Assembly: GCF_030684315.1 (NCBI RefSeq)
Contig: NC_081391.1
Span: 13,617,342-13,681,341, forward strand
Direction of reading: 5' to 3'
Origin: Stegostoma tigrinum
Lineage: Eukaryota
Length of the DNA stretch: 64,000 nt
A program made the position numbers and the translations under genes. The notes under the pieces were generated by a model that worked only from the letters and a program-made list of their open reading frames with translations, ran no database searches and was not told the origin of the DNA. This document shows, in pieces, positions 242 through 61,536 of the stretch (its first letter is position 1; each line of letters opens with the position of its first letter).

Positions 242-397
242 CTGTGTGACTTCCTGGAGACCCACTATTTGGATGAGGAGGTGGAGATCATCAAGCAACT
301 TGGGGACTACATCACCAACCTGAAGCGCCTGGGAGCCCCTGAGAATGGGATGGGAGAGTACCTGTTTGACAGGCTCTCCCTGGAGGACAGCAGTTAG
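242..397 (+). CDS. Ferritin subunit copy F0, terminal exon 4 only (rest of the gene lies upstream of the window)
   Basis: After acceptor ...ctctgttgcag it reads [51 protein letters not shown], the ferritin D/E helices. AATAAA at 524-529. Confidence 0.93.
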
Positions 398-1487
398 TGT
401 GGCCTGGAGTACTGTCTGCTTGTCTGAATGCATTCCCCACTTCACCCTGGGCAATCTGCCTCTCTCCAGGGAGAAAGGACTTTGAGCAAAGAATGTAATG
501 GCTGTACCAGCCGAATGGAAATGAATAAAATGATCTCTTGATCTCAGTTACTGTGCATCATTTTGAGACCACTGATACCGCTTTGGTCAAGCAAGCTTTC
601 TTGCCTCACTTCACCATTGCTTTTCCCCAACCCCCTGTGGACAGACTCCAGGCCTATGGGAGCCAGTTGGGGTTCAAATGGGGCCTGTGACCGACCCTGA
701 CGACAACCATCAACTGGTGGCCCTGCTGACCAGTTCCCTTTGTCACTGAAGTCTGCTGCTCCTCCCAGGGGCCCTTGGGTTTTCTGAACTTTCTTGGTTC
801 AACTGCATAGATTTGTTTTTCCCCCAGAAGGAATCCAAAATTCCTTCAAGTGGCTTCCTCAGTTTTTTGCTTTCTTTCCTTCGCCCTGGGCTCAGTCCCT
901 CCCCATAACTGGAAGTCCACCAGCCCTGAGCTGGGGAAATTCAGCCCAAACATTCTGAACAGTCACATTCCAGAGAATCATCTCCAGATTCTCTGGGGCT
1001 ACTTGATTGATAGTGGATGCTCTTGATACCATAAATACAAGGATTGGTGACCTGGGGCTTGGATGATTGCCCATGGTTCAAAATACTCACATTTGGTTTA
1101 TGCTTGCAGCTACAACTGGCCTCTGACTGTTGAAGGGTTTGTACAAAAAGCTGCTACCTTGGTTCTTGGAACCTTTCCATGGGCTGATGAAATTTTTTTT
1201 TTGACCCAGTGAGGGAGCAGGGATTTCTGGGGAAGATGGGGGCTGTCTCCTTCAGTCAAGATGCCTGGACATGCTGACTTTGCCTTACAGCTGTTTCCTT
1301 GATCATTCAAGGTGTCTGATCATGGGTTAGGGAGGGTGTGATCAGAGACAGCCCGGAGATTATCTTGAGTTTTGGCACAAGTGCACACTGTAGCCTTAGG
1401 AAGAGTGTGGGTCATTAAGGTACTGAATAGATTTGTTCCATCACAAAAATCCTTGTTGTTTGGCCCAGTCTCTATCCTTGGTGATAG

Positions 1488-2930: not shown

Positions 2931-4391
2931 ATGAGGATTGCAAATGTCATTCCCCTGTTCAGAGGATAGCAAATGTGGTTCCCCTGTGCAAGAAGGGGAG
3001 TAGAGACAACCCTGGTAATTGTAGACCAGTCAGCCTTACCTCAGTTGTTGGGAAAGTGTTGAAAAAGGTTATAAGGGATAGGATTTATAATTATCTAGAA
3101 AAGAATAAATTGGTTAGGGATAGTCAGCACGGTTTTGTGAAGGGAAGGTCGTGCCTCACAAACCTTATTGAGTTCTTTCAGAAGGTGAGCAAACAGGTAT
3201 TTGAGAGTAAACCGGTTGATGTGGTGCATATGGATTTCAGCAAGTCGTTCGATTAGGTTCGCCACAGTCGGCTATTGTACAAAATGCGGAGGAATGGAAT
3301 TGTGGGAGATATAGCAGTTTGGATCGGAAATTGGCTTGCTGAAAGAAGACACAGGGTGGTAGTTGATGGGAAATGTTCATCCTGGAGACCAGTTATTCGT
3401 GGTGTACTGCAAGGGTCGGTGTTGGGTCCACTGCTGTTTGTCATTTTTATAAATGACCTGGATGAGTTTGTAGAAGGATGGGTTAGTAAATTTGCAGACG
3501 ACACTAAGGTCAGTGGAGTTGTGGATAGTGACGAAGGTAGCTGTAGGTCGCAGAGAGACATAGATAAGCTGCAGAGCTGGGCTGAGAAGTGGCAAATGGA
3601 GTTTAATGCAGACAGGTGTGAGGTGATGCACTTTTGTAGGAGTAACTGGAAGGCAAAGTACAGGGCTAATGGTAAGATTCTTGGTGGTGTAGATGAGCAG
3701 AGAGATCTCGGTGTCCATGTACACAGATCCTTGAAAGTTGCCACCCAGGTTGACAGGGTGGTTGAGAAGGCATACAATGTTTTGGCTTTTATTAATAGAG
3801 GGATTGAGTTCCAGAACCAAGAGGTTATGGCGAAGCTGTACAAAACTCTGGTTAGGCCGCACTTGGAGTATTGTGTACAGTTCTGGTCACCCCATTATAA
3901 GAAGAATGTAGAAGCTTTGGAAAGGGTGCAGAGGAGATTTACTAGGATGTTGCCTGGTATGGAGGGAAGGTCTTAAGAGGAAATGCTGAGGGACTTGAGG
4001 CTGTTTTCATTCGAGAGAAGAAGGCTGAGAGGCGACTTAATTGAAACATATGAAATAATTAGAGGGTTGGATAAGGAGAGCCTTTTTCCTAGGATGGTGA
4101 CAGCGAGCACGAGGGGGCATTGCTTTAAATTGAGGTGTGAACGATATAGGACAGATTTCAGAGGTAGTTTCTCTACTCAGAGTAGTGAGGGAATGGAACG
4201 CTTTGCCTGCAACGGTCGTAGATTCGCCAACTTTAGGTACATTTGAGTCGTCATTGGACGAGCATCTGGACGTACATGGAATAGTGTAGGTTAGATGGGC
4301 TTCATATCGGTATGACTGGTCGGCACAACATCGAGGGCCGAAGGGCCTGTACTGTGCTGTAATGTTCTATGTTTTATGTTCTATATTCTAT
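2931..4391 (+). mobile_element. 5'-truncated CR1-clade LINE (ORF2 reverse transcriptase, disrupted)
   Basis: ORFs 2975-3256, 3275-3976 and 3983-4246 contain PGNCRPVSLTS, QHGF, QGSVLGPLLF, KFADDTK and RPHLEYCVQFWSP. In-frame stops at 3254 and 3974. The 3' end is a (TTCTAT)-like repeat. The empty site is visible in other units (e.g. ~21113). Confidence 0.95.
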
Positions 4392-4575
4392 GGCTCCAAC
4401 ACCAATGTTCAAAAGTTATGACGACTAATCCCTCAGATTAACAATCCGACGAAATTGTGCAAATCTGTGATGACTGAGTCTTAACGCACAACCTCAGATA
4501 CACAAGTGAAGGTTTAGAGTATATTTTATTGTCATTTTCTGGCAAATACATTTACAGAATGTGCACTTGTACAGG

Positions 4576-4763
4576 AGGTCAAAGCTCATTCAGCAATTCC
4601 ATCATCGACCAGTTGTCAACTGTGTTTCGTTTCTGGATCCAGTTCCCATCCTGCACTGATTGGACGTGGCAGCTGATCAACTGATCATCAAGAGTGATTG
4701 GCCATCACTGATGATGTCATTTCCTGCTTCATAAAAAGAGGGTCTGCCCCTGGGGTATAAATA
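4576..4763 (+). promoter_or_regulatory. Promoter of F1
   Basis: DR1 AGGTCAAAGcTCA 4576-4588, inverted CCAAT 4658-4663 and 4696-4701, ACGTG 4664-4668, CAGCTG 4670-4675, TGATGTCA 4712-4719, TATAAATA 4756-4763. The block recurs before every copy. Confidence 0.75.
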
Positions 4764-4848
4764 GAGTCCCACGGGAATGATGTTGATTGTTCTTCCTAAT
4801 TTTGTTATTTTGGTGGTGAGGAAAATAAAAGAAATTTATTGTCACAAG

Positions 4849-7800
4849 ATGGCCTCCCAGATCAGTCAGAACTATCACCAGGATTGTGAAGCTGCTGTCA
4901 ACAAGCAGATTAATGTGGAGCTCACTGCCTCCTATCTCTATCAGTCTTTGGTGAGTGCTGTCTCTCGGGGTTAAACATATAAATCTGTTCTGTTGAAGTA
5001 AACTCTTTGCCTGGCCTCTAGTGAAGCTGACAATCTAGTAGATTGAGGTTTTGTGGCTCCTACCCAAATATCAGTTCAGGATAGAGGTGGTGTTACTATC
5101 ACGATGGTGTAGGATACTGATGTATGTTAACTCAGGTCCCAGTTGGCCTTCAGTGGTATCTGGAGGGTAAAAGCCTCTTGCTTTTGTTTTCTTTCTGACA
5201 CAAGTTTCCTGACTTCATTTGCCTGATCTCTGTGGTGGTCCTAAACAAACATGCTGATTTTTTTTAACACTGACAATAACAATAACTTCCCTGTTGCAGT
5301 GGCCCTTGTTAGTCTGAACAAACCTGAGGCTAGTCTGTGACTGGTATCTATTTTATGTAGATCTCCTTCATTGAGGCTGACTTGGCTTTACTTGTATTTA
5401 TTCAAGAGGTGGGTGTGGCCTATCCCGTCCCTACTGAGAGTTGATCTGCCGTGTGTGAGAAATGTTGGATCCCCTCTCTGCCCCCTCTCCTCCCCACCCC
5501 ACCCCACACTGGGGCTGCGGGAATGTGGTGAGGCTATTAGCCCAGTGACATTGAAGAAATGGAGGTTGTTCCCATATCATTTAGCTTGACCTAAAACAAA
5601 ATGTCCCCTCTATCCTGGTGGTGATGTGACTGTGCCCTTCCAAGGAGTAGAATGTGCTTGGAAGGTATGTGTTGAAGTAACCTTGGTGAGTGCTGCAGGG
5701 GACCTGGTAGGTAATGGACCCTGAAAGGAGGTGGTGAATGCAGTCCCCATGAAGTGGGCTGCCCTGTCCTGGATGGTGTCTGCTTCTTGCATGTTGTAGC
5801 TCCCCTTCTACAGACACATGGGGAATATTTATCTCCCTCTGGGCTTGTGCCTATTGGAAGGAAGTTGTCTTGTAATGAGGACTAAGTCCCTATAAGCCTC
5901 ACTTGGGAGGTGGGACCGCTTTATTGGTGAGCCAGTTGTTGGGGTTTAATCACTGTGTCCCACCTCAACTGGCACATGCTTCCCAAGGATAAAATCCCGA
6001 CTATCTTCTGCCACAACTTGTAACTACCCACTGAAACCACAGATATTTGCTTGCCTGAGTGTGGTTTTTGGATTTGAGGATTAAAGTAACTTTACAGGAG
6101 TCCTTCCCCAGAATGTAATTCTTAGCTGATGCTTCCAATAGCGAGCATTAGCTCTTAAACCCTTACATCGAATTGTGAACGTGACAGTTTAGATATGAGT
6201 CACATGGGCTGAAAACCTACAGGATTTTTTGCCTGTTTGGGTAAAGTCAGGGCAAGTGTTTTTCCAGGTTACTGTTTTCACTAGTGACGTTATCTACAGG
6301 CCACTAATAGTTGACATTTGATCATTTGTTTTGCAATTTGTTTCAGTCATGTGACTTGGTGCAAGCTTTTGACAGCCTGCGTTTGCACTACTTAGGCAGA
6401 GCAATAACCCACTGCTGCAACGATCCAAAGGCTGTTACTGGGCAGGCTTTCCTCGGCATTATCTTAGTGCCAAACTCCAAACTGGAGACAGCACACCTTT
6501 GTAGAGTTCATGTGTACACTTACATCCCAATCTCGTTGATCCTGGGTTTGCAGAAAACATGCTCCCTACTAGTCGTTGACTACAGCAGGGTTTCAACATC
6601 TTTTTTTCCAGTTTTCCCCAAAGGCAAAACATAGTACCTTGCGTCTTGTAGTTGAGAACTGGAATGGGGAGTGAGCCAGTGATGTCTGATGTAATTTTAA
6701 CTTGATCTTCCAGATGTCCTACTTTGACCGGGACGATGTTGCCCTCGCCCATTTCTCCCGGTTCTTCAAAGATCAGTCCCAGGAGAAGCGGGAACATGTA
6801 GAAAAGCTGCTGAAATTCCAGAATCAGCGTGGAGGCCGAGTCCTCCTCCAGGATGTGAAGGTTGGGGTTGGGTGGTGGGGGAGTGCAGGGGGGAATGGCT
6901 GCTCTTGCGGTGTCATCTCCAGTGACAAGATTTTCAGATCCTGAGCGAGTGTGAGAAGTTCTTTTGCTTGGCTTCCCTGTTTGCTCTCCTCCATCTCCAG
7001 TGTTTCAGCATTTATGCAAGCCCTCTGGTCCACCAGGCCTATGCTGACCCAGCAAAGACCGAACTGTACTCACCCTGTTCTTGGTCCAGGCCCTACTATA
7101 CCCTAGTGTTAGCACTCGCCCAGCTAGTCCTTTAAACAGTGCTGCAGTAGCCGTTTCCAGCACTTTGTTCTTCCGTTCCCCAACACACCCACCAAATTTC
7201 CTCCAATCCCCTCTATCCTGCTTCCTCAAACCTGTGCCCTCTGGTCTGAGTGTCTGCCATGGGGAAGACATTTTCCCCATCTACTGTCCAGACTTCCTTG
7301 TCTTCCATCAAACAACCACCTCAGCCTCACCTGCTCAAAGGAAACCCCCCAGCCCATCCAATCTCTCTCCTCAATGGATTTTCTGTCTTGGGGAAACAAC
7401 CTGGGGACCCTCACCAGCACCCCCTGCAGTACCATCCTGTCCTTCTGACTAGTGAGGCCAACGATAGAATGCAGCAGAGGCCGGAAGAACAATTTTCATA
7501 AAATGTGTTCAAAGGACTTGTCCCTGTGCTGTTCCTCACAACCCTGCCCCAAACTAACACATGTTACTTGGCCTATGTCCCCTTTCACACACAGTTTGCC
7601 TTGTGTGAGCATTGAGGGATCGATGATCCTGTGTTTATTGTAAGCACTTTACTGCCCCCCACAATGAATTCAAGTAATGATGGTTCTGACCATGCTGCTC
7701 GGGCATGTATGAGGCCACAAGCACAAGTGAGACTTGAACCTCAGCCTTGTCAACCGAAGCTTGGGACACGACCGCTACTTCCCCCACAGCCCTTGGGATT

Positions 7801-9012
7801 CACTCCTGAATATCCTTTTTAAGACTCCAGCAGATGGACACTAGTGCAAATGACTAATCTGGTACATATTTATTCCCTGTGGTACAAGGATATGTTCCTG
7901 AGCTTCCGGCTTCAGGTCAAGGATAAATGGGGCAAGGTGAAAGGAGTCACCAAGTAGCTAATGTTTTCTTTATCTGGACTTCAGGGATGGCACAGTGGCT
8001 CAGTGGTTGGCACTGTTGACTCAGTGCCAGGGGCACCAGTTTGGTTCTGGCCTGTGACAAGAATTTAAACGTTATCCCAAAGCATGGCTTCCCCACACAG
8101 TAGAAAAGAGGATTGGCAACTTGAAATGCAGGTTACACGAACAGGGTGGGAATGGGACCAGATGGGATGCTCTTCAGCAGTTATGGTCTCAATGGGGTGA
8201 ATGGCCAGCTCCCATGCTGCAGGGATTCTGTTTCTGAAGCTTACCTGTCCTTCTCTCCATCCCCAGAAGCCAGAGAGGGATGAGTGGGGTAACAGTCTGC
8301 AGGCAATGCAGGTTGCCCTGAATCTGGAGAAGAATGTGAACCAGAGTTTGCTGGATCTACACCAACTCGCCACAGCCCAGACTGACCCTCATGTAAGCTT
8401 CACCTCCTCATTCACATCACTGCTAGACCCTCAGGGTAACATTTCATTGGTTGGTCTGTGTGGATTGGAAATTCACTGATGTAACACTTTCCATCCATTA
8501 CTTTCCTGAACTATTGTAACATTGTAATCAGTATGATCCCAAGTGATCAATGAGGTATAAGGGGAATTTGATCTATAATCTAGTGGAAGTGCTGAAATGA
8601 CGTTGGCCACTGAGTTCTTCATTAGTATCATTGCAGTGGAATGATCATTGTCCATCACAATCCAACTCAGCTCCATTTCACAAACAGCAAGATGCAGCAG
8701 CTGACATGTTGTCCTCACTGGCACAAATTCTCCAGGTGTTAGCTCGCTTTTCAGGGCTGTCCAGAGCTAGTCATGGCTAAGTCTGTCTTGCAGAGGGAAT
8801 TCTGAAATTGTCTTGGATAGTATAAATGTACCAAGTGTCATATTCCTCTGTTGCAGCTGTGTGACTTCCTGGAGACTCACTATTTGGATGAGGAGGTGGA
8901 GATCATCAAGCAACTTGGGGACTACATCACCAACCTGAAGCGCCTGGGAGCCCCTGAGAATGGGATGGGAGAGTACCTGTTTGACAGGCTCTCCCTGGAG
9001 GACAGCAGTTAG
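4849..9012 (+). CDS. Ferritin subunit (heavy/middle-like, L-type Lys62/Glu141) copy F1, intact; exons 4849-4950, 6714-6860, 8267-8392, 8857-9012; 176 aa
   Basis: Spliced at GT-AG junctions with vertebrate ferritin exon boundaries: [129 protein letters not shown]...DSS*. Confidence 0.95.
5395..5985 (-). mobile_element. Degenerate L2/CR1-group LINE 3' fragment in intron 1 (counterparts in intron 1 of all copies)
   Basis: Minus-strand [13 protein letters not shown] resembles the C-terminal ORF2 motif LDTIQDKAARLIG of this LINE group. Also at ~13985, ~40015, ~49975 and ~57500. Confidence 0.6.
7984..8229 (+). mobile_element. Degenerate tRNA-derived V-SINE in intron 2, just upstream of exon 3
   Basis: Head gggatggcacagtggctcagtggtt (A box) and tail atgctgcagggattct. 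Same position in F2 (~16608), F3 (~25750), F4 (~34055), F5 (~42604), F6 (~52604) and F7 (~60508). Confidence 0.7.
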
Positions 9013-13179: not shown

Positions 13180-13365
13180 AGGTCAAAGGTCATTCAGCAA
13201 TTCCATCATCGACCAGTTGTCAATTCTGATCGTTTTCTGGATCCAATTCCCATCCTGCACTGATTGGACGTGGCAGCTGATCAATTGATTAACAAGAGTG
13301 ATTGGCCATCACTGATGATGTCATTTCCTGCTTCATAAAATGAGAGTCTGCTCCTGGAGTATAAG
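13180..13365 (+). promoter_or_regulatory. Promoter of F2
   Basis: Perfect DR1 AGGTCAAAGGTCA 13180-13192, two inverted CCAAT boxes, TATAAG 13360-13365. Confidence 0.65.
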
Positions 13366-13464: not shown

Positions 13465-16400
13465 ATGGCCTCCCAGATTAGTCAGAACTATCACCAGGAT
13501 TGTGAAGCTGCTGTCAACAAGCAGATTCATGTGGAGCTCACTGCCTCCTATCTCTATCAGTCTTTGGTGAGTGTTGTCCCTAGGGGGTTAAAACTTGATC
13601 TATGTAGTTGCAGTAAATGGTTTCTCTTGAATTTAAATAACTGGACACTCTCTCTGGTCGACTGAGTTTTGTGGTCCTTTCCTAAATATTAATTCAGGAT
13701 AAGGGCAATGTTACTATACCAATGGGGTTTGATAATGATGTACTCTGAAGCTGGGTCCCAGTTGGCATTTGGAGATATGTGGAGGTTTAAGTGTCCCTGG
13801 AGATATTTGCCAGTTTTGATTGGCAGTAGATGTCATTCCCTCTAAGATTACACAGCAGGCTGAGCAGGATGGCTGATGTTTTGGGGCTTGACCCTTCTGA
13901 AGGTGTGTCTAGGCCCAAAACATCAGCTTTCCTGCTCCTTTGCTTGGCCTGATGTGTTCATTCAGCTCTACATCATTGTATCTCAAGGGGTAGAGTGTGT
14001 TTGGAGGTTGTGTTGAAGTAACCTTGGTGAGTGCTGCAGGGGACCTGGTAGATAATGGACCCTGAAAGGAGGTGGTGAATGCAGTCCCCATCAAGTGGGC
14101 TGCTCTGTCCTGGATGGTGTCTGCTTCTTGCAAGTGGCAGCTCCACCTCCACGGACACATGGAGAAGCTTCATCACACTCAGCTTTTGTCTCTTAGAAAG
14201 AAGATGCCTCATGACAGATGGATGAAGCCTGTGTAAACTCCATTTGGGAGGTGGGTACAGCTTTCATTGGTGAGCTAGTTGATGGGTGTTAATTCCTGAC
14301 CAGGGTCCCAATTCCCTTGGGCAACATGTGTGCCAATTCTAAAATCCTTCCTATTCTCTCCTGCCACAGCTTGTCCCTACCCCAATTAAACAGCCAAGAA
14401 ATTTTGTTTGACTGCTTCTGCTTCAAGAAAGTAACTTCCCACCAGGTTTCCTCAACAACAAAACCCTTAGCTCCTGTTTCAAATATCAGAAGAATAGCCC
14501 TTCATAAACCTCAAGGCATTGGATTGTGAATATCTCGGTTCGGAAGTGAGTCACATATGGGTGGACAAACAACAGAACGCTGCCTGCTGGAATAAGCCAA
14601 ACTCTGGTGTCCAGCTTTGTGTTAACTAGTGATGTTAGATCAGCCATTATCTGGAGGTACATGTCGCATTGGCCTGCTCCCTCTCTCTCTCCCCCCCCTG
14701 CGTGCTCTTGTGGTCATGTGACCCTTGTTTTCTCCCCCCTGACCCCTTCTGGATGTGAGTGCACTAATTTTAGTGTGCTATAAACTATAGCTGCAACAAT
14801 CCAGAGGCTGTTACTGGGTAGGTTTTCCTTTGCACTACTTGTTGTTGCTTTCTCTCATTCGCCGCTACTATATCTTGTAGTAATAAAATATACCGTACAC
14901 TCAATCTCCCTGGTTTTGAGGCCGCAGAAACCTTGCTTCCTCCTGGTTATATTGTTACAGCAGTGTCTAACATGCATTTCCATGCCAGCCCCAAAGGAGC
15001 AATAGTGTTGCAGCTCCGCTACTCAACTATAGCCTGCACTCCAGCTCCTGGTGCTTGTTTCAGCTGTTTTTTAGGCTCTAAATTTGTCCAATTCAGATGA
15101 AGGTTAGTGAGTGAAAACATGGCTGGATGTAAGAAGAGCTATAATGCTGTGCCAGACAGCCTGAGCAATTCACTGTTTTAAGCCAAACTTTTGCCAGTTT
15201 CCAATAGGAAATTGGGATTGTTGTTAGTTCCCAGTTGAAGGATCCGCTGGCCAGCTGGATATCAGTGGATTCTCAACCATGTTCACATACCACGCAGTTA
15301 ACAGCTAACTGAGCAGTTAGCTTGCTGCAGAAGGCTGAACTAGAATTTGGAGTCAGTGCTGTGTTCAATGGGCTTTAACATGTTCTCTCCCTTCCAGATG
15401 ACCTACTTTGACTGGGATGATGTGGCCCTCCCCCACTTCTCCCAGTTCTTCAAAGATCAGTCCCAGGTGAAGCAGGAACCTGCAGAGAAGCTGCTGAAAT
15501 TCCAGAATCAGTGTGGAGGCAGAGGCTGAGTCCTCCTCCAGGATGTGAAGGTTGGAGTTGTGTGGGAGGGTTGCAGCTGTGGGGAAGAGAATGGCAGCTC
15601 TTGTGGTGCTGCTTCCTGTTGGGATGTAAAAATCCTCTTTTGGCCTGGCTTCCCTGTTTGATTTCTTTTGAAGGCAGTTTCTAAACTAGCCCTATTGTCC
15701 ACCATGTCTATGCTGCCCACAAACCTCAAACTACATTAACACAATTTCCTTGCACTTAGTCCACAGCCTACTATCTTCTGGCATGAAGAAGTTGTTGAGA
15801 TTAGGCTTAAATGTTGCTGGAGTAACTTCCTCCACTGACCCCTCAGGTCATGCATCCCATACCTCTCCCACCCTCCATTATCCTCCAATCTCCTCAAACC
15901 TGTGCCATCTGGTCTTCATGTCTGCCACAGGGACTGTCTATTGTCCATGCTCCCTGATCTTCCACACTTCCATGAGATAACCATCCCAGTCTATCCAACC
16001 TCCCTCTCATCATTGTTTTTTTTGTCAGTTTTCTTCCCCCATCTTGGGCCAACATCCTGATGACACTCACCTGTACCCCCTCCAGTGTCACCCTGCCCCT
16101 CTGATTGTGGTTCTGGTCACCACACTACATTCCATCTTTGGTCTGGCCAATGCTGCCATGTTTATGGCAAGACTCATCCTTTTTACTGATCCCCAACTCC
16201 TGGAGACCAGCATCCATGTCAGCCCCTTCCCCACTCTGTCTACCGTTGCTGAACCTTGAGGGATGGCCTTGGGCATTTGTTGCTTGTCCCTTTTACTGTA
16301 AGCACATTGCTGCTCCCTTCAATGAATTAAACAGCAGTGATGTCTGATCATCCTGCTCAGACATGTATGAAGCCACTGGCACAGGTGAGACATAGATGCC

Positions 16401-17610
16401 TGGCCTGCAAGGTCTAGATTGGTACTCTACCTCAAGAGCCCTTGAGACGAAGGTGTGAATGTCCTGATCTAAATGACAAATGGGCACTGGTGCAAACAGT
16501 TTAACTTTGTGTGAAATAAATCCCTGTCCCCACAATGACTTCATGCTTCAGATCAAGGATAAATGGAGCAAAGTGAAGTCACCTACAAGTCATCAATGTG
16601 GGTTTTAGGGGTGGCACAGTTGCTCAGTGGTTAGCACTGCTGCCTCAGTGCCAGGGACACAGGTTTAGCTCTGGCCTCTAGTGACTGGTGCTGACATGAT
16701 CAGTTTCTTCCTACAGTCCAAATATGGGCAGGCTGGGTGAAGTAGCTGTGGGGGAAATGCAGGGCTATGGGATCAGGTAAATCTGAGATCTGCTTCAGAA
16801 GGTTGATTGCAGACTCAATGGGCTGAATGGCCTGCTCCCATGCTGCAGGAAGTCTGATTCTGAGGCTTAACTGTTCTTCTTTCCCCCCTCCAGAAGCCAG
16901 AGAGGGATGAGTAGGGTAACAGCCTGCAGGCAATGCAAGTTCTCCTGGATCTGGAGAAGAACGTGAACCAGAGTTTGTTGGATCTACCCCAACTCGCCAC
17001 AGCCCAGACTGACCCTCATGTAAGCTTCACCTCTTCATTCTCACCACTGCCATGCCTCCTCAACTTCATTGGTTGATCTTTGTGGAGTGGAAAGTCACAC
17101 ACGTAACTCTGTCCAGATGCTACATTGTCATCATAATTATGTTATTAAGGTACAATGTTACAACTGCTCAACACTGAACTGAAATAGGAATTTGGATTAC
17201 AGTCTAGTGGGAATGCTGATGTGATTTTTGGCTGCTGAATTGGGATTGTTGCACTATACAATACAACTTGGAGCTCTTTAAGAAGGTGAGATGGATCAGC
17301 TGAAATGTTGTCGTCACTGGCATCAATTCTCCACCTGGTAGCAAGATTTTCAGGGCTGTCTAGAGCAAGTTATGGCTAAGGGTTTTTCAGTGGGAATTGT
17401 ACAATTGTCTTGGATAGTGTTAATGCACCCAGTTGTCATATTCCTCTGTTGCAGCTGTGTGACTTCCTGGAGACTCACTATTTGGATGAGGAGGTGGAGA
17501 TCATCAAGCAACTGGGTGACTACATCACCAACCTGAAGCACCTGGGAGCCCCTGAGAATGGGATGGAAGAGTACCTGTTTGACAGGCTCTCCCTGGAGGA
17601 CAGCAGTTAG
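13465..17610 (+). pseudogene. Ferritin pseudogene F2; exons 13465-13566, 15398-15550, 16894-17019, 17455-17610
   Basis: Exon 2 has a 6-nt duplication followed by an in-frame TGA (15527-15529, from CGA). Exon 3 has TGG>TAG (16912-16914). Also H65P and several other missense changes. Confidence 0.92.
13846..13975. repeat. Palindromic element derived from Penelope termini, in F2 intron 1
   Basis: gctgatgttttgggg..gacccttc pairs with gaagg..ctaggcccaaaacatcagc. The arms match the end of the Penelope copy at 50462-50540. Confidence 0.7.
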
Positions 17611-21298: not shown

Positions 21299-21487
21299 AG
21301 GTCAAAGATCATTTCAGCAATTTCATCATCAACCACTCATCAATTCTGATTGGTTTTTTGACCCGATTCCCATCCTGCACTGATTGGATGTGGCAGCTGA
21401 TCAATTGATTAACAAGAGTGTTTGGCCATCACTGATGATCTCATTTCCTGCTTCATAAAATGAGTGTTGGCTCCTGGAGTATAAATA
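21299..21487 (+). promoter_or_regulatory. Promoter of F3
   Basis: DR1 AGGTCAAAGaTCA 21299-21311, inverted CCAAT, CAGCTG, TATAAATA 21480-21487. Confidence 0.7.
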
Positions 21488-42400: not shown

Positions 42401-43632
42401 CCCCCACAGCCCGTGGGATTCACTCCTGAATATCCTTTTTAAGACTCCAGCTGATGGACACTGGTGCAAATGACTAATCTGGTACATATTTATTCCCTGT
42501 GGTACAAGGATACGTTCCTGAGCTTCCGGCTTCAGGTCAAGGATAAATGGGGCAAGGTGAAAGGAGTCACCAAGTAGCTAATGCTTTCTTTATCTGGACT
42601 TCAGGGATGGCACAGTGGCTCAGTGGTTGGCACTGTTGACACAGTGCCAGGGGCACCAGTTTGGTTCTGGCCTGTGACGAGAATTTAAACGTTATCCCAA
42701 AGCATGGCTTCCCCACACAGTAGAAAAGAGGATTGGCAACTTGAAATGCAGGTTACACGAACAGGGTGGGAATGGGACCAGATGGGATGCTCTTCAGCAG
42801 TTATGGTCTCAATGGGGTGAATGGCCAGCTCCCATGCTGCAGGGATTCTGTTTCTGAAGCTTACCTGTCCTTCTCTCCATCCCCAGAAGCCAGAGAGGGA
42901 CGAGTGGGGTAACAGCCTGCAGGCAATGCAGGTTGCCCTGGATCTGGAGAAGAATGTGAACCAGAGTTTGCTGGATCTACACCAACTCGCCACAGCCCAG
43001 ACTGACCCTCATGTAAGCTTCACCTCCTCATTCACATCACTGCTAGACTCTCAGGGTCATGTTTCATTGGTTGGTCTGTGTGGATTGGAAATTCACTGAT
43101 GTAACACTTTCCATCCATTACTTTCCTGAACTATTGTAACATTGATCACTTGGGATCATACTGATTACAATGAGTTAAAAGGGGAATTTGATCTCTAATC
43201 TAGTGGAAGTGCTGAAATGACGTTGGCCATTGAGTTCTTCATTCGTATCATTGCAGTGGAATGATCATTGTCCATCACAATCCAACTCAGCTCCATTTCA
43301 CAAACAGCAAGATGGAGCAGCTGACATGTTGTCCTCACTGGCACAAATTCTCCAGGTGTTAGCTCGCTTTTCAGGGCTGTCCAGAGCTAGTCATGGCTAA
43401 GTCTGTCTTGCAGTGGGAATTCTGAAATTGTCTTGGATAGTATAAATGTACCAAGTGTCATATTCCTCTGTTGCAGCTGTGTGACTTCCTGGAGACTCAC
43501 TATTTGGATGAGGAGGTGGAGATCATCAAGCAACTCGGGGACTACATCACCAACCTGAAGCGCCTGGGAGCCCCTGAGAATGGGATGGGAGAGTACCTGT
43601 TTGACAGGCTCTCCCTGGAGGACAGCAGTTAG
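39468..43632 (+). CDS. Ferritin subunit copy F5, intact; exons 39468-39569, 41333-41479, 42887-43012, 43477-43632
   Basis: Open 531-nt spliced frame and near-identical duplicate of F1. Exon 2 [31 protein letters not shown]... Confidence 0.95.
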
Positions 43633-48597: not shown

Positions 48598-48786
48598 AGG
48601 TCAAAGGTCATTCAGCAATTCCGTCATCGACCAGTTGTCAATTCTGATCGTTTTCTGGATCCAATTCCCATCCTGCACTGATTGGACGTGGCAGCTGATC
48701 AATTGATGAATGAGAGTGATTGGCCATCACTGATGATGTCATTTCCTGCTCAAGAAAACGAGGGGGCTGCTGCTCGAGTATAAAAA
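48598..48786 (+). promoter_or_regulatory. Promoter of F6
   Basis: Perfect DR1 48598-48610, two inverted CCAAT boxes, TATAAAAA 48779-48786. Confidence 0.65.
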
Positions 48787-48894: not shown

Positions 48895-49174
48895 NNNNNN
48901 NNNNNNNNNNNNNNNNNNNNNNNNNNNNNNNNNNNNNNNNNNNNNNNNNNNNNNNNNNNNNNNNNNNNNNNNNNNNNNNNNNNNNNNNNNNNNNNNNNNN
49001 NNNNNNNNNNNNNNNNNNNNNNNNNNNNNNNNNNNNNNNNNNNNNNNNNNNNNNNNNNNNNNNNNNNNNNNNNNNNNNNNNNNNNNNNNNNNNNNNNNNN
49101 NNNNNNNNNNNNNNNNNNNNNNNNNNNNNNNNNNNNNNNNNNNNNNNNNNNNNNNNNNNNNNNNNNNNNNNNNN
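48895..49174. other. Assembly gap (280 N) covering the start codon of F6
   Basis: Run of N. Sequence resumes at codon 5 (ATC AGT CAG) of exon 1. Confidence 0.99.
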
Positions 49175-52100
49175 ATCAGTCAGAACTATCACCAGGATTG
49201 TGAAGCTGCTGTCAACAAGCAGATTAATGTGGAGCTCACTGCCTCCTATCTCTATCAGTCTTTGGTGAGTGCTGTCTTGATGGAGTTGAAATTAAATCTA
49301 TTCTGCAAATATGAGCTGATCCTCTTGTTTCTAATTAACTTCATAGTCTTGTAGATTTGAGGTGTTCAAGTTCTTAGCTTAAAAATCATTTTGGGATAAA
49401 TGTGATGCCCTTTGGTAACAATGGATTTTGATATTGATGTAGAATAACTAATTCACCAGCTGGGATTGAGTGATAGATGGAGGGCAAATTGTTCTGTCAA
49501 TTATTTTACAATTTACTGCCAGGCCTTTGCCTGGTGGTAACTGTCTATTTTCTCCCCAGAATTGACCAACCTTTACTAAAAATAGATGTAATGGTTTTGG
49601 GAGTTGTAGGCACCCCTTGGCTAGTCATCCTGAAACATTTTAATATACCTTGATCACACTTTATTTGTCCTCTGATCCTAAATAAACATCATGCCAGTTT
49701 CCATTCTGTGATGGAGAATGATGGTGGTGACTGGCTTCTGAGCGTATTCACTTGTAATTTGCATTGAGGAGGCCTCAGATGTGGACTAGTTGGCTTTCTG
49801 CCTTCTCCATTCACGAATGGACTGTTAGTGGTCAGGAAGTCACTTGTTGTCCATTCCTCCAACAGATCAATGCTCTCCTGTGAGTGCATGCACAGGGTGT
49901 CTAGAATAACCTGAGGTTTTTATTTCAATAAATATGAAGAAATGGGAAATGGCCCCTTTCTCCACGTAGTACTGTGCCCATGCCCTTCCAAAATGGAAGG
50001 ATGTAATGGTTTGGAAATGTTGAAGCAGATTTTGAAGGCTGCTGGGTACCTAGTAGGTAGTGGACACCAGGAGTGCATTCACTCACTCCCTTCAATGAGG
50101 TGGGCTGCTCTATCCTGCACAGTGTCTACTTTGTGCATGTTGCAGCTCCACTTCTTGGGACAAGGGGACAATATTTATCCCTTGTGGGGCTTATCACTGA
50201 GAAGCCATCTCTTCCCACTCTTTCAGGATGAAATCCCTGTACCCTTCCCTTTAGCAGGTGGGAACAGCTATCACCAATAAGCCTTTTGGGTCTTAACTGT
50301 CAGTGGTGTCCCTCATCAATTGGGCAGCATGTGCCCAAACAACCCACTATCCTCCATCTGTAAGATGCAGCTACCCAAGTTAAGCCAGAGAAATTTACAC
50401 AACTGTTTTTTGACAAAAGAAGCTTCTTAGCCTGATCAGTAGGAACTAGATAACCTGCTTTAACAAGGTGTCAAGCTGGATGAACACAGCAGGCCAAGCA
50501 GCATCAGGGAAGCTGATGTTTTGGGCCTGGACCCTTCAGAAATGGGGAGGGGAATGGGTCCCTGACATAGGAAGGGGTGGGGAGGTGGATGGATGAGGGA
50601 TAAAGAAACAGATGGTGAGGAGACAGAGGTCTGAGGTGAGGATAGGGCCAAAAAGGCCAAATGAGTTGGGTAGGCTTGTCCAGGGAGGTGGGGATGGGTT
50701 TTGAGGTAGGGGTGGTGTGGGGAAGTAGGTGGGAGGAAGGATGGACAAGCTAGGGAGGTGGGGACCAGCTGGGCTGTGATTGGGGGCAGGGAGATCTTTC
50801 AGCTTAAGTCCTCACTGATACCATTGGGCTGCAGGGTTCCCAAGCAGAATACAAGGTGCTGTTCCTGCAACCTTTGGGTGGCATTGGAGGCCCAGAATGG
50901 ACATCAACTGTCCCCTCCTGCTCCTCTGAAGGGGAAGTAGTTTGTGACTGGGAGGTGCAGCTGCCAGTCATGAGCCAAGCATGGGTGCTCCACAAAGTGG
51001 AGTCAAGCCTCTGCTCGGCTTTCCTGATGTAGAGAAGGCCACATTAGGAACAGTGGATACAGTATACATCACTGCAGATGTGTAGGTGAACATCTGCTTG
51101 ATGTGGAAGGTCTTGGGCCCTGGGATGGGGGGGGAGGTGTAGCACTATCTGTGTGGCAGTTAAAGCCCTGGCTGGAGGGGCTAGTGGAATGGACAAGGAA
51201 TCAGTGGTCTCTCCAGAAGGCAGCTAAGGTTGGGGAGGTAAAAAATGTCTTGGCCAGATCGCAGATGGTCGAAGTGCCAGAGGATGATGCATTGGATCCA
51301 GGCATTGAGGCGGTACTGAAGGATGAGAGGATTCTGTTTTGGTTGTGTGCGGGATAAGTTGCAAGACGCTGTTGTGTTTTTCTTCAACTGAAGGTAAGTT
51401 ACACTTCATTGGAAAATGAGGACATCTGGGATGCCCAGGAGTAGAATGCCTCCCCTCAGGGCTGGAGGTGAAGGAATTGGATTAGGAGATGGCACTTTCC
51501 TTCCACAGGAAGGTGGGTGAGGTGTATTCTAGGTAGCTGTAGGAGTCAGTAGGTTAGAAATATATCCAAGGATATATCGAAGATTGATAGATCAACTTAA
51601 GGTTGAGGTAGAAGGTTCTAATGAATTAGAGGAACTGTTCAAGCTCTTTGTGGGATGTAATAGAGGAAGATGTGGAGTTTATGGCCCATCTCGCTGTAGA
51701 AGGATTGTTCCACATATCCTACCAAGAAGCAGGCACAGCTTGTACCTATGGCCACCCCCTTCCTCTGTAGGAGTTGGGAGGAATTGAAGGAGAAGTTGGG
51801 GGTGAGGATGAGTTTGCTAGGTGGACAAGGTTGTTGGTGAACAGGGACCAGTCAGGCCTGCAGGACGAGAGAAGCAGAGGGAATTAGGCCATCTCCATGG
51901 GGAATGGATGAGGTTGGAGGCTGTGGGTGGGAGGTAACCTCCAGTGAGGTTGTGGATGGACTAGGAGATGGTTTGGTGGTCAGCGGTGGAGTCATGATCA
52001 AGGTGGGTAGGTGGTAGGAGGCATCGGCTGCTCTTCCACACAACTACATGTGGCACTCCAGCTCCTGGCATTTCCTTTAAACCCTGTTCAGTCACGAACT

Positions 52101-53677
52101 TCATCCAATTCTGATGGTGCTTAGAGTGGATATGTTCTTCTCTCTACAGACAAGAACAGGCCTGGTCAATTCACAGGTTTTTGTAAAGGAATTTTAAAAA
52201 ATAGGGTATTTGCCTGGTTACCAGGAGGAGGCGAGGGTTGTTTTTGATGATTCTTGAACTGGAGCCACTGGCTAACTGGACAATGGTTCTCCTCCAACTT
52301 GATGTATCTAATATTTATTGACTTCTCAATTTGAAGGTGAAACCAGTCATGTCTGGCACCAATTGTATGATGTTTAATGGATGTAACTTGTTTTCTCCCA
52401 GGTGTCGTACTTTGACCAGGATGATGTTGCTCTCCCCCATGTCTCCCGGTTCTTCAAAGATCAGTCCCAGGTGAAGCAGGAACGTGCAGAGAAGCTGCTG
52501 AAATTCCAGAATCAGCGTGGAGGCCAAGTCTTCCTCCAGGATGTGAAGTTTGGAGTTGGGTTTTTGGGGTGGGGGGAGTTGGGTGGTAGAGTGGCTGCTC
52601 CTCAGGGATGGCACAGTGACTCAGTGTTTACCATGCCTGCCTCAGTGCCAGGGATCCAAGTTGGTTCTTGGTTCTAGGCTCCAGTGAATGAGTGATGTTT
52701 ACTTGCTCTTGCCATGTCCACATTGGCTTCACAGTTCAATGATGTGTGTGTTAGAAGGATTGCCATTTAAAATGCAGGGTGACAAGAATAAGGTGGGATT
52801 CTTCACGGAGAAGGGCCTTGTCGCAACAAACGTAGTGGCTGTACCTGCTGATCGGGGATGAATGAAATGATGCAGTGACCTTGGTTATTGTCACCATGAG
52901 TCAAATAGCCTGTTCCCATGCTGCAGAGATTGTGAAGCTTACCTGTCCTCTCTCCATCCGCAGAAGCCAGAGAGGGATGAGTGGGGTAACAGCCTGCAGG
53001 CAATGCAGGTTGCCCTGGATTTGGAGAAGAATGTGAACCAGAGTTTGCTGGATCTCCACCAACTCGCCACAGCCCAGACTGACCCTCATGTAAGCTTCAC
53101 CTCTTCATTCTCATCACTGCCATGCCTCTTCAACTTCATTGGTTGGTCTTTGTGGAGTGGAAATTCGCAGACGTAACTTTGTCCAGATGCTACATTGTAC
53201 CTTTGTCATCATAATTATGATGACAATGTTAAACTGCTCAACACCGAACTGAAATAGGAATTTGGATTACAGTCTAGTGGGAATGCTGATGTGACTTTTT
53301 TGACTGCTGAATTGGGGATTGTTGCACTATACAAGACAACTTGGAGCTCTTTGAGAAGGTGAGATGGAGCAGCTGAAATGTCCTCACTGGCACAAATTCT
53401 CCACCTGTTAGCTAGATTTTCAGGGCTGTCTAGAGCTAGTTATGGCTCAGTCTTTTTCAGGAGGAATTGTGAAGTTGTCTTGGATAGTATAAATGTACCA
53501 AGTGTCATATTCCTCTGTTGCAGCTGTGACTTCCTGGAGACTCACTATTTGGATGAGGAGGTGGAGATCATCAAGCAACTTGGGGACTACATCACCAACC
53601 TGAAGCGCCTGGGAGCCCCTGAGAATGGGATGGGAGAGTACCTGTTTGACAGGCTCTCCCTGGAGGACAGCAGTTAG
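49175..53677 (+). pseudogene. Ferritin pseudogene F6; exons <49175-49264, 52402-52548, 52964-53089, 53524-53677
   Basis: The exon 2 donor is AAG|TT instead of AAG|GT. Exon 4 lacks 2 nt (ctg tga c) and gives a stop at 53527-53529. Exon 2 carries QSQVKQER. Confidence 0.85.
50462..52030 (-). mobile_element. Degenerate Penelope-like retroelement (RT plus GIY-YIG endonuclease relic) in F6 intron 1
   Basis: With frameshifts, the minus strand gives GPKTFHIKQMFT..VYCIHCS*CGLLYI (GIY-YIG, ~50990-51120), HSYLEYTS (~51520-51540) and GVAIGT..ACFLVGYVEQS (RT, ~51700-51760). Confidence 0.85.
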
Positions 53678-56593: not shown

Positions 56594-56781
56594 AGGTCAA
56601 AGGTCAGTCAGCAATTCCATCATCGACCAGTTGTCAATTCTGATCGGTTTCTGGATCCAATTCCCATCCTGCACTGATTGGACGTGGCAACTGATCAATT
56701 GAGTAACAAGAGTAATTGGCCATCACTGATGATGCCATTTCCTGCTTCACAAAGTGAGGGTCTGCTCCTGGAGCATAAATA
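56594..56781 (+). promoter_or_regulatory. Promoter of F7
   Basis: Perfect DR1 56594-56606, inverted CCAAT plus ACGTG, CATAAATA variant 56774-56781. Confidence 0.65.
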
Positions 56782-56876: not shown

Positions 56877-59800
56877 ATGGCCTCCCAGATCAGTCAGAAC
56901 TATCACCAGGATTGTGAAGCTGCTGTCAACAAGCAGATTAATGTGGAGCTCACTGCCTCCTATCTCTATCAGTCTTTGGTGAGTGTCCCTGTAGTGTTGG
57001 ATTTAAATCTGTTATGAAGTGAACTTTTTCTTAAAAAACTAGATTAACACTCTTGTAGACTTTTCTTTGTATCTCTTGCCTATTTCTTGAGTCAGGGTAA
57101 ATGTGATGACAATGGGATATGATACTGATATGCAGCAACTGAGGCCCCAGTTGTCTCAATGATATAGGGAGGGTGAAGCATCTTGTGATTTATCTTAAAA
57201 TTCCTTTTAGGGCTGTGATTGCCTATAACTGACCGTGGTTCTCCATAATTTTCTAAACTACTGTCAAGTTTTGATGATCAAGATAACATTTGGCTAATTA
57301 CCTTTTTTAAATCTGCCTTGATGTATCTATTTTAATTTTCAGCATGTAAATAAACAAACAAACATACTGATTTTGGTATTTACAATGAAGTGTTGTAGTA
57401 ATTTGACCAATCAGATTTGGTTAAGCTGAACTCTAGTCCTCCAGGTAAAACAGGCTGCTACCTACTTAAGTAGGTCTCCTATATTTTGGCTTCTTGTACT
57501 CTATCATGAGGTGGGTTTGATCCATCACTTCACAACCTATAGATAGTTGACTTGTGGGTGCCCTGCACCCACCCCCGCCCCACCAGGGCTGCTGGAACAT
57601 GCTGAGGCTATTGACTTCAGGGGTGAAGAAATAAATGTTCCTTTACCATTTAACCAGATAAAAAAAACAAACTGGCCCCTCCCACCAGGTGGTGGTGTCC
57701 CTGTGCCCTTCCAAGGAGTAGAATGTGTTCAGAAGGTGTTGCAGTCCCCTTGGTGAGTGCTGCAGGGGACCTGGTAGATAATGGACCCTGAAAGGAGGTG
57801 GTGAATGCAGTCCCCATGAAGTGGGCTGCTCTGTCCTGGATGGTGTCTGCTTCTTGCATGTGGCAGCTCCACTTCTTCAGACACATGGAGAATATTCATC
57901 ACTCTCTGGGCTTGTGCTTGTTGGAGCGAAGCTGCCTCTAAATGACATGAGGATCAAGCCCCTATAACCTACCTTTTTGGGAGGTGGAACAGCTTTAACT
58001 AGTGAACCAATTGTTGGGTTTTAGTCACTGACCACTGTCCCAACTCAATAGGGAATCTTGTGTGCTGATAATAAAATCCCCACTATTCTACACCTTCTAT
58101 GACTTAACTACCCCATTAAACCACTTTTTTTTAACTTTTTTTGTTTTTATTTGAGGATTAAACTAACTTTTCACCAGGATTCCACCCAAGAACGAAATCT
58201 TCTTTTGAAGAAGTCAATAGACTACTCCTAATCAACAATAACTTGTTGGATTGTGAATCTCAGTTGAAAAGTGAGTGAAATGAGTGGGGAAACAATAGTT
58301 TAGATCTTGGAATAAGCTAAATTGAGCTCTCCAGCTTTGCAATCTATAGATCATGTGACTTGTTCATAGTCCTGCAGATACTATTAGGTCTCCTGAACAT
58401 TCGATCTTGTTTCAGTTGTGAATTTTTTTAATGCTTTGCTTTGCAAGCTTCTGGCAACCTGAGTGCACTGCATAAACAAATGTGATAAACTATTGCTGCA
58501 ACAAGCCAAAGGCTATCACTGGGCAGGCTCTCCTTTAGCACCAAGATTCTCCAAATTGCCCTCATTCTCCTGCATACTGCAAACAGCATCTCTTGTAGAG
58601 CTGCTTTATGTAAAGAAAAAATACAGTACATCTGATCCAACTGGTTGCAGAAGACCTGTACCTACTCGCTACATTCATGTCCAGCATCTGCATGCTACTC
58701 TAGCACCAGGGGAGACATGTAATGACTTGAAGTTGCCTGACCCTGTGCACATCCTGCATTCCAGCTCCTGGCACTTGGTTAAACCCTATTCAGTTACCAC
58801 TTCCATCCAATTCTGGAGGCTAGATGGCAGAAATGTGCATTCAGCTTTTCTATCTAGGCTGTGCCAGACCCACACCCCCAAACAATTCAGCAGGGTTTAT
58901 AAACCCAAACACTGAAATTGTATCTTACATGGAAGAAGCTGGGGTTGTTTGGTTTCCTCCAATTAAAGGAGCTGCTGGCTAACTTTGCAACACCATTAGT
59001 GAACATTGTAAGGTGTCAACAATTTTCAGCTGATTGAATCATTAGTTTGCTTTAGACTAAACCAGTCCTCCAGTTCTGAGCATGAGAAATGGGGTCAATG
59101 ATGTGTTTAATGGGCTTTAACTTTTGTTCTCCCTTCCAGATGTCCTACTTTGACCGGGATGATGTTGCCCTCGCCCATGTCTCCCGGTTCTTCAAAGATC
59201 AGTCCCAAGAGAAGCAGGAACATGCAGAGAAGCTGCTGAAATTCCAGAATCAGCGTGGAGGCAGAGTCCTCCTCCAGGATGTGAAGGTTGGAGTTTTTGG
59301 TGGGGGGTTGTGTGGCAGTGTGCAGGAATGGCAGCTCATGGTGTTTTCTGTCATTAGTGACAGGATTTTCACGTGGTAAAGGGTGTGTAGGTTAGAGTTG
59401 GAGAACTTAGGCAGTGGGGAGGAGATGTGAGAAATGGCTGCTTGTGGTGAGGTTTCATGTCCTGAAAGAAAGTGAAAACTGTTCTTGTTTGGCTCCCCTC
59501 CTTTTGACTAAAAGGGAAGATCCTCGAAACAAGCCTCTTGGCTCCCCTCCACCTGCTGCTTCTCCACACCGCGCCCCCCCCCCCCCCACCCCATGCTGAC
59601 CCAACAAACACCAAACCACATTCATCCCATTTACTGCACTTGGTCTCCAGCCCCCATGGCATTGGTAGTTGTCTAGAAGCTGCTTCAATATTGCAGCAGT
59701 AGATGCCTCCCCCACTGCCCCACCCCCCCATATTATTTTTCCACTACCCTCTCGGCAAAGGATTCCTCTAACCTGCTTACTCCTCACATCAGTGCCCTCT

Positions 59801-61536
59801 GGTCTTAATGTCTCTTTCTCCCCACCCCCTCATAGCAGACACTCCCCATCTACTATCAAGACTCCACACTAATCAAATGCCATCACAGAAACATCTCAAC
59901 TGACTTCACTCTGGGGATTGGAGTGAGAAATCTAATCTCTCCTTTTAATGGATTTTTCAGTCTTGGGGCAACATCCTAGTGACCCCTTCCAGTGCCATTG
60001 TGGCTCTGGTCACCACACTGTATTCCACGTTTGCATGGCCAATGCTGCAAAGTTTGTGACAAGACTGGAGTCCCTGGACTGCACCCCAGGAAATGGGGAC
60101 AGGCATTGTGGAAGCCAACTTCCCCATCCTGTCTACACTTATGGATCCTTGAAATATCTTTAGTCTTGTGCTCTTGGTTCCTTTATTGTCAACATATTGC
60201 TGTCCCTTCAATGAATTAAATAGTAGTGCTGATTTTCATCATTCAGGTCAGTCCTATATGAAGCAATAGGCCCAGGTTGAAGTCCCACTTGTGCTTATGC
60301 TCCAAGCCTAGGGACAGTACCACTGCATAACAAGCCCCGGGCTCAAGTTGTGAATATCCTCCTTGGGATGCCATCAGATGGGCACTGACAATTCTGTGCA
60401 AGCATAACTCTTATCCCCACTATGACCTGGTCATGAATTGACTCTCCTTTCGGAAGAAGCAAATAGGGCTAGGTGAAAGGAATTCTTAAATAACTGATCT
60501 GGGCTTCAGGGATGGCAGTGGTTAGCACAACTGCATCAGTGCTTGGGGCACAAGCTTAATTCTGGCCTCTGGTGACTGACTGGAATTTACATGTTCACCA
60601 CATCTCTACATAGGTTTCCTCCCACAGTCCAATGATGTGCAGGTTAGGATAGGCCATGAAAAATGCAGGATTACATGGCTAGGTCTAGGACCAGGTTGGA
60701 TGCTCTTCAGACGGTCATGAGTGGGCAGAATGGCCTGTTGCATGCTGCAGGGATTTTTGTTTCTGAGGCTTAACTGTCCTTCTGTCCATCCTTAGAAGCC
60801 AGAGAGGGATGAGTGGGTAACAGTCTGCAGACAATGCAGGTTGCCCTGGATCTGGAGAAGAATGTGAACCAGAGTTTGCTGGATCTACACCAACTCTCCA
60901 CAGCCCAGACTGACCCTCATGTAAGCTTCACCACTTCATTCTCATCACTGCGAGACCCTCAGGGTAACACTTCATTGGTTGGTCTGTGTGGATTGGAAAT
61001 TCACAGGTGTGCACTGATCACTTCGGGTCCATGCTGCTGAGCAGTTGTTACATGGTGATCAGTAATGAAGTGAAATGGGAGTTTGGAAGGCAATCCATTG
61101 GGAGTGATGAAGTGATATTGGCCATTGAATTCCCATTCTCACTTGGGAGCATTACAGTGGGATGATCATTGTCCATCACCATCCAACTCAGCTCCACTTC
61201 ACAAACAGCAAGATGGAGCAGCTGAAATCCTATTGTCATCACCGACACAGATTTTCCAGGTGTTAGCTAAATTTTCAGGGCTGTCTGGAACTAGTATGGT
61301 AAAGCCTGTTTTTCAGTGGGAATTCTGAAATTGTCTTGGATAGTGTTAATGCACCCAGTTGTCATATTCCTCTGTTGCAGCTGTGTGACTTCCTGGAGAC
61401 TCACTATTTGGATGAGGAGGTGGAGATCATCAAGCAACTCGGGGACTACATCACCAACCTGAAGCGCCTGGGAGCCCCTGAGAATGGGATGGGAGAGTAC
61501 CTGTTTGACAGGCTCTCCCTGGAGGACAGCAGTTAG
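56877..61536 (+). pseudogene. Ferritin copy F7, frameshifted as assembled (may be intact); exons 56877-56978, 59140-59286, 60796-60920, 61381-61536
   Basis: Exon 3 is 125 nt (gagtgggtaac versus gagtggggtaac), giving a stop at 60865-60867. All other exons and splice sites are intact. Confidence 0.7.

Follow-up and report, generated by a model that had tools for sequence, protein, structure and literature searches.

We analysed a 64,000-nt stretch of Stegostoma tigrinum NC_081391.1 (the window), which carries a tandem array of ferritin genes. The encoded protein is a cytosolic-type four-helix ferritin that has Lys in place of Glu62, the ligand bridging the di-iron site, and keeps Glu107 opposite this position. 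It belongs to one of three ferritin classes of sharks, here called class C, which is old, shark-wide and under purifying selection. We slightly favour the view that class C is a catalytically weak, light-chain (L)-type structural subunit, free of an iron-responsive element (IRE), of a high-dose shark ferritin; its activity, partner and tissue are what we infer from the evidence below.

Gene copies, residues and promoters of the window

An earlier note, made from the letters of the window, had counted at least eight tandem ferritin copies. A six-frame motif scan, exon BLAST and exon alignment found eight (F0 to F7, Table 1), all on the plus strand at ∼8-10 kb spacing, each with the 4-exon/3-intron layout described for vertebrate cytosolic ferritin genes (PMC4117605). 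The window edge truncates F0. Intact reading frames of 176 residues are found in F1, F3, F4 and F5, and F2, F6 and F7 are broken. Chance similarity is excluded by exon matches with E values of 1e-50 to 1e-111 and a Pfam Ferritin match with E 7e-36.

Residues are numbered as in the human heavy (H) chain by way of the macaque H chain (P0422). All 7 exon 2s have AAG (Lys) as codon 62, as the earlier note had it, although the motif given there for this site, QSQEKREH, occurs exactly in only 4 of the 7. The other residues it listed were all found: Glu141 (GAG), Ile144 and Leu173 in 8 of 8 exon 4s, and the ligands Glu27, Tyr34, Glu61, His65 and Glu107 together with the 3-fold channel residues His118, Cys130, Asp131 and Glu134 in all four intact copies. 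The value of Leu173 as an L-type sign did not hold, since this residue is also present in the active shark class, bird middle (M)-type and lamprey ferritins. On residue comparison, Leu173 and Ile144 were rejected or weak as L markers.

Set against the known subunit types, the window proteins fall between definitions. The complete ferroxidase centre of an active H or M chain (Glu27, Tyr34, Glu61, Glu62, His65, Glu107, Gln141) is absent, as all copies carry Lys62 and Glu141. M chains are defined by the L-type nucleation residues Glu57 and Glu64 alongside a ferroxidase centre (PMC4117605), whereas position 57 is Asp or His here. Lys62 stands with Glu107 as in tetrapod L chains, and the two would form the salt bridge of those chains; the tetrapod L pair of Glu141 and Leu173 is found in the window and in carpet sharks, while other class members have Gln141. 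Neither the loss of Glu27 and His65 nor the Glu57/60/61/64 nucleation patch of mammalian L was found. The protein has the features of a 24-mer maxi-ferritin (Ferritin domain PF00210, four-helix bundle with E helix, 3-fold channel residues). An AlphaFold model of one Stegostoma member (P0010) has a predicted local distance difference test score of 89 and template modelling scores of 0.92-0.95 to frog M and human H ferritins, which indicates a normal subunit fold.

Six copies share an 89-bp promoter core at 94.5% identity. By comparison, identity is 70% between the TATA-like box and the ATG, 73-80% in introns and 70-82% in flanking and intron DNA overall. A 20-bp motif at the centre of the core is present 7 times, preceding each of the seven complete copies once. 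The core contains what we take to be two reverse CCAAT boxes, an E-box and an ETS-like site. Rfam gave 0 IRE matches at the gathering threshold in the window and none at E<=10 over 4300-5000, where 7 sub-threshold matches were to unrelated small nucleolar RNAs and microRNAs. An IRE hairpin regular expression found none in any upstream region and a single intergenic match on the minus strand. No IRE was thus found between the F1 promoter and its ATG, where a 5' untranslated region (UTR) IRE would be expected; the transcription start is unmapped and an upstream exon is possible. Vertebrate ferritin mRNAs normally carry an IRE (PMC4117605). The last part of the promoter core (4722-4733 and its equivalents in other copies) lies upstream of the TATA-like box, lacks an Rfam IRE match at E<=10 and is possibly an ETS site or a remnant. 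This stretch resembles what we take to be the 5' arm of the canonical ferritin IRE.

For the intact copies, all 6 pairs gave a ratio of nonsynonymous to synonymous differences per site (pN/pS) of 0.18-0.40. Between non-sister copies, divergence is 5-10% at fourfold sites and 19-23% in intron 3 (Fisher p 0.0008-0.054, 5 pairs), so that either the exons have been homogenised or synonymous sites are constrained. Exons and 3' UTR are much more alike between copies than introns, pseudogenes included (e.g., F1 8267-9012 vs. F4 34307-35052), and F3 and F4 are 95% alike in intron 2 and 77% in intron 3. These patterns suggest exon-biased gene conversion and mosaic copies.

A block of ∼34.6 kb is duplicated at 94-98% identity (97-98% for F0/F1 vs. 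F4/F5), and the F0/F1 vs. F4/F5 block could be partly haplotypic. An assembly artefact as the main cause of the array was ruled out, because introns differ by ∼20% between non-sister copies and the class is multi-copy in the annotations of other species. Decayed fragments of reverse transcriptase of the long interspersed nuclear element (LINE) type lie upstream of F1 and F5 (3257-3973 and 37876-38592) and were copied along with the array; similar pieces occur in intron 1 of F3 and F4. The RVT_1 match for 3257-3973 (E 1e-12) was the sole other coding match, found in one of the 4 non-ferritin open reading frames scanned. Tandem Repeats Finder gave nothing relevant in the window. A 280-N gap (48895-49174) conceals the 5' UTR and start codon of F6, whose promoter lies left of the gap and ends in a C-rich run.

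Table 1. Ferritin copies and their promoter cores in the window
Feature	Positions	Strand	Remarks
F0, exon 4 only	242-397	+	gene starts left of window; Glu141, Ile144, Leu173; sister segment of F4 in the ∼34.6-kb duplication
F1 promoter core	4643-4731	+	TATA-like box ends 4763
F1, intact Lys62/Glu141 gene	4849-9012	+	exons 4849-4950, 6714-6860, 8267-8392, 8857-9012; polyA signal 9140
F2 promoter core	13247-13335	+	
F2, pseudogene	13465-17610	+	exons 13465-13566, 15398-15550, 16894-17019, 17455-17610; stops in exons 2 and 3, E61V, H65P; Lys62, Glu141 retained
F3 promoter core	21367-21455	+	
F3, intact gene	21574-26731	+	exons 21574-21675, 24470-24616, 26000-26125, 26576-26731; exons 2 and 4 100% identical to Stegostoma XP_059496503.1 (P0010), annotated 'ferritin, middle subunit-like'
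F4 promoter core	29851-29939	+	
F4, intact gene	30058-35052	+	exons 30058-30159, 32780-32926, 34307-34432, 34897-35052; protein identical to Stegostoma XP_059496544.1 (P0131)
F5 promoter core	39262-39350	+	
F5, intact gene	39468-43632	+	exons 39468-39569, 41333-41479, 42887-43012, 43477-43632; recent duplicate of F1, 97% over 6.9 kb
F6 promoter-core motif	48678-48697	+	left of 280-N gap
F6, probable pseudogene	49175-53677	+	start inside N gap 48895-49174; GT>TT donor after exon 2, 2-nt deletion at exon 4 start, E61V, H65R
F7 promoter core	56661-56749	+	
F7	56877-61536	+	exons 56877-56978, 59140-59286, 60796-60920, 61381-61536; 1-nt deletion in exon 3 G run, pseudogene or homopolymer sequencing error

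Ferritin classes of sharks and their origin

To place the array, 262 named cartilaginous-fish proteins (304 domains) were assigned to classes by nearest reference, ignoring positions 62 and 141; the sample is biased by the queries, and chimaera, lungfish and bichir ferritins were not among the matches listed. Most ferritins returned by a library search at 50% identity were unnamed, and the only new leads with Lys62 were marsupial and lizard ones. Class A is canonical-looking and apparently of a single type, and all 13 of its domains have Glu62. The amplified class B has an intact ferroxidase centre (Glu62 in 131/144 domains). Class C, that of the window, has Lys62 in 103 of 105 domains and was found in Stegostoma, Rhincodon, Chiloscyllium, Hemiscyllium, Scyliorhinus, Mustelus, Carcharodon, Cetorhinus, Heterodontus and Heptranchias. 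It formed one starred clade across sharks in all four trees (support 100/99-100). Glu27 and His65 are nearly invariant in class C, with His65 changed to Arg, Cys or Tyr in some members.

All 63 carpet-shark class C domains that cover position 141 have Glu there, and none of the 30 from other sharks do (30/30 are Lys62 with Gln141), which makes Glu141 a late addition to the class. The proposal of an L-type subunit on an H/M-like scaffold, made in the earlier note, stands as far as a distinct, conserved and amplified Lys62 class is concerned; Glu141 as a feature of that class does not.

The three classes are annotated on the same 26,869,179-bp sequence in Stegostoma (P0010, P0178, P0316, P0616), and the white-shark Lys62 members and the other two classes are on a single 33.1-Mb sequence. 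Judging by sequence lengths, Stegostoma, Carcharodon, Cetorhinus, Scyliorhinus, Heterodontus and Heptranchias each appear to have their class C members on a single chromosome-scale sequence. Many annotated shark ferritins of 260-350 aa (P0002-P0005, P0007, P0009) fuse exons of neighbouring copies and are probably gene-model errors arising from the tandem array. Five NCBI records labelled as Salmonella or Aeromonas ferritin (P0036, P0206, P0602, P0605, P0611) are of the shark type, one of them identical to a white-shark Lys62 protein, and are likely contamination or mislabelling.

Two further positions differ within or between classes. Exon 4 of F4 (34897-35052) encodes Arg143 and that of the other copies Glu143; in carpet sharks, Lys143 has mostly been changed to Glu, beside Glu141. 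At position 22 (exon 1, 4849-4950 in F1), both amplified shark classes have Lys, and canonical H, M and L chains and shark class A have Arg. Arg22 of H chains is a contact for NCOA4 in ferritinophagy (PMC11719527), so the turnover of cages made from the amplified classes may be lower, judging from this one residue.

The relation of class C to tetrapod L was examined in trees of 81, 81 and 55 named proteins chosen from the matches, with unnamed, fragmentary and fused records omitted and long branches dropped in one. The four unconstrained trees separate the two: class C is weakly joined to class B (88-94/65-75, not starred), and tetrapod L goes with the M chains of bony vertebrates. The approximately unbiased (AU) test never rejected a grouping of class C with L, giving p values of 0.136 and 0.266 when seven trait columns were removed. 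With these columns kept, p was 0.559 and the tree constrained to class C plus L was better by 0.85 log-likelihood units. Diagnostic columns are similarly divided, with 6 shared by C and L only, 4 by C and B and 5 by L and M. Mapped on one unconstrained tree, that with long branches dropped, Lys62 needs 3 changes and Glu141 needs 2; E62K would thus have arisen up to three times, or twice if class C is the L orthologue. The odds that class C is the shark orthologue of tetrapod L, as opposed to a convergent copy, are roughly even. The phylogeny proposed as a check in the earlier note thus recovers class C as a distinct shark clade (100/100) without separating an intermediate from an independent origin (AU p 0.136-0.559).

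M and L are often stated to be orthologues. In three tetrapods, M-type and L-named ferritins lie on scaffolds of equal size, namely Varanus (5,994,773; P0038/P0366), Crocodylus (117,929,553; P0050/P0288) and Nanorana (187,299; P0334/P0396). These shared scaffold sizes suggest that tetrapod M and L are neighbouring paralogues rather than orthologues. A more ambitious history, which we regard as tentative and rather doubtful, would join these points. Class C would be the true orthologue of tetrapod L, and an H/M/L system with M and L as tandem paralogues would date from the jawed-vertebrate ancestor. Sharks would have retained the first L step (Lys62 before the loss of Glu27 and His65) and built an IRE-free ovarian ferritin by amplifying genes of both the M type and the L type. 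The L-type residues Glu141, Ile144 and Arg172 would then have arisen anew and independently in carpet sharks.

Proposed function and competing explanations

Our reading of class C as a weak structural subunit starts from position 62. By analogy with mammalian L, Lys62 would remove the bridging ligand and very probably pairs with Glu107, with loss of fast Fe(II) oxidation and stabilisation of the cage. In the L chain the Lys62-Glu107 salt bridge takes the place of the iron site and stabilises the cage (PMC11396501), and the double change E62K+H65G abolishes the H chain's ferroxidase activity (PMC6929972). Class C is likely to co-assemble with the active Glu62 class B into mixed 24-mers, in which class B would provide catalysis and the intact 3-fold channels would still admit iron, with fewer catalytic sites per cage. 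We also lean towards the view that IRE loss and amplification would give a large, developmentally timed output, with both amplified classes under developmental rather than iron control and filling a long-lived iron store, for which oocytes are the most likely site. Vertebrate ovaries and amphibian eggs are rich in ferritin (PMC1488847), and the largest Greenland-shark ferritin cluster is reported to be ovary-specific (bioRxiv 10.1101/2024.09.09.611499).

A role as nucleation partner, suggested in the earlier note, is doubtful. The window class has Asp or His at position 57 and Gln at position 60, two positions at which the L chains of platypus and tree-shrew have Glu; Glu57 is also found in the neighbouring active class B. 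Lacking Glu57 and Glu60, class C would probably act as a stabilising diluent more than as a nucleator. The residue set seen there as an intermediate state is present and is not unique: Glu27, His65 and Lys62 also occur together in frog oocyte L chains and in a marsupial ferritin, which makes this combination a recurrent state.

Several observations weigh against this function. Since the published null is a double mutant (E62K+H65G), and class C keeps His65 and Glu27 and gains Glu141, some residual ferroxidase activity is possible on residue grounds. The ovary evidence comes from the Greenland shark, in which the classes were not separated and from which no protein was among the matches. The ovary of sharks rests on the epigonal organ, which is blood-forming, so an 'ovary' label does not necessarily point to oocytes. 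Class C was not seen among 19 ray and skate domains, and no Lys62 was seen among 26 sawshark domains (both biased samples); class C is therefore not clearly needed by all elasmobranchs. CCAAT-box, E-box and ETS-like motifs are used in oocyte promoters and are generic, and the likeness of the promoters among copies could come from gene conversion. Three of the seven complete copies are broken (F2, F6, F7).

A non-storage role is unlikely, and has the most to recommend it among the alternatives. Class C would then resemble FTHL17 or the 'atypical' ferritins of invertebrates and form a homopolymeric, iron-poor cage, produced in bulk and acting either as a buffer for Fe(II) or other metals or as a stable bulk protein of germ cells or embryos, independently of the active class. 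The absence of a detected IRE, of a full ferroxidase centre and of the nucleation residues Glu57 and Glu60 would suit such a role. There are also precedents in the sponge atypical ferritins, which have E62K and lack IREs (PMC8395497), and in mouse Fthl17, a clustered germ-cell and embryo family without ferroxidase activity that is, unlike class C, X-linked (PMC13149808, PMC2887969). However, the 3-fold channel residues and Glu27, Glu61, His65, Glu107 and Glu140 are conserved in class C, unlike in sponge HdF2 (PMC8395497), and the active class is co-amplified on the same chromosome.

It is improbable that the array reflects mostly neutral birth and death, in which a few copies matter, the others are products of turnover, and duplication and gene conversion would have spread Lys62 as a one-base change (GAG>AAG) that is tolerated. 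The broken copies, the recent ∼34.6-kb duplication and the homogenised exons would all be expected from such turnover, and E62K occurs sporadically elsewhere, e.g., in 5 Heptranchias domains of the active class B. Against it, 103 of 105 domains retain Lys62 in a range of lineages, Heptranchias and the galeomorph sharks among them, pN/pS is well below 1, and the promoter core and 3' UTR are conserved. Least probable, if only slightly so, is that class C is still a ferroxidase with a rearranged di-iron or a mono-iron site, Glu27 and His65 keeping site A and carpet-shark Glu141 replacing the carboxylate lost at 62: these two ligands are nearly invariant, Glu141 is fixed in the carpet sharks and the published null took two changes, but the Lys62 and Gln141 of the 30 non-carpet-shark domains indicate that the class long existed without this compensation, Lys62 with Glu141 is the combination of tetrapod L chains, and His65 varies in some members.

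Comparison with known ferritins and significance

The nearest described system is the shark cluster of Sahm et al. (bioRxiv 10.1101/2024.09.09.611499), who reported an ancient clustered FTL/FTH1 expansion common to Greenland and white sharks, with 155 'FTL' and 179 'FTH1' copies. Class C likewise forms a large cluster across shark orders, the white shark included, and the amplification described in the earlier note is thus real and had already been reported. The available text of that preprint gives no residue-level classes, ferroxidase-centre state or IRE status, and its figure of >=90% identity to the human orthologues is at odds with the 63-65% to mammalian H and L measured here. Ferritin is not mentioned in a second Greenland-shark preprint.

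Among tetrapods, the frog 'light chain, oocyte isoform' (Xenopus tropicalis P0383, Mantella P0382, Bufo P0373) shares Lys62, Glu107, Glu141, Leu173 and Glu27 with class C; His65 is also kept in P0383, P0382 and P0411, and Ile144 in P0383. It differs in having Glu57 and Glu60 and often Lys61, is 62-65% identical to class C, and is placed with tetrapod L (98-100 support), a clade that the unconstrained trees separate from the shark class. Mammalian and reptile FTL have Lys62/Glu107, Glu141 and Leu173 like the window class but have lost Glu27 and His65, and mammalian L has the full Glu57/60/61/64 patch and is typically single-copy and IRE-regulated (PMC4117605). The nearest scaffold is that of frog and teleost M chains and the shark Glu62 class (65-74% identity, with frog M as the best structural matches), which differ in Glu62 and Gln141, hence a complete ferroxidase centre, and usually Glu57.

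The marsupial 'FTHL17-like' ferritin (P0437 cluster) resembles class C in Glu27, Glu61, Lys62, His65, Ile144 and Leu173. It forms a long branch among tetrapod M chains, outside the shark clade, which indicates a separate origin of Lys62 rather than common descent (mouse Fthl17 was not in the tree). The marsupial proteins annotated 'FTHL17' (P0437, P0570-P0579), which carry Lys62 and group with M chains, may represent a surviving mammalian M gene, judging from this placement. The fthl27 array of the hadal snailfish is a tandem fish ferritin array of 14 copies amplified for dosage; it is recent and species-specific, most tissues express it, and the available text mentions no Lys62 class (PMC10746142).

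No description of the shark Lys62 class was found in the literature searched, which covers few subscription papers. Class C is apparently undescribed, inside an expansion already reported for sharks, and apparently works like an L chain while lacking several features of mammalian L. The biochemistry of an L-type partner is itself of a known kind, and the finding is relevant mainly to specialists in ferritin and in shark reproduction. The shark expansion was known as copy number; its split into active Glu62 and IRE-free Lys62 classes appears new in the literature searched and corrects the automatic 'heavy/middle subunit-like' labels. Because the classical null needed two changes, class C offers a natural single-site test of Lys62 alone. 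It also bears on when and how often a non-catalytic L subunit arose, and the two-class split provides a concrete model for iron provisioning in sharks, probably to their very large eggs.

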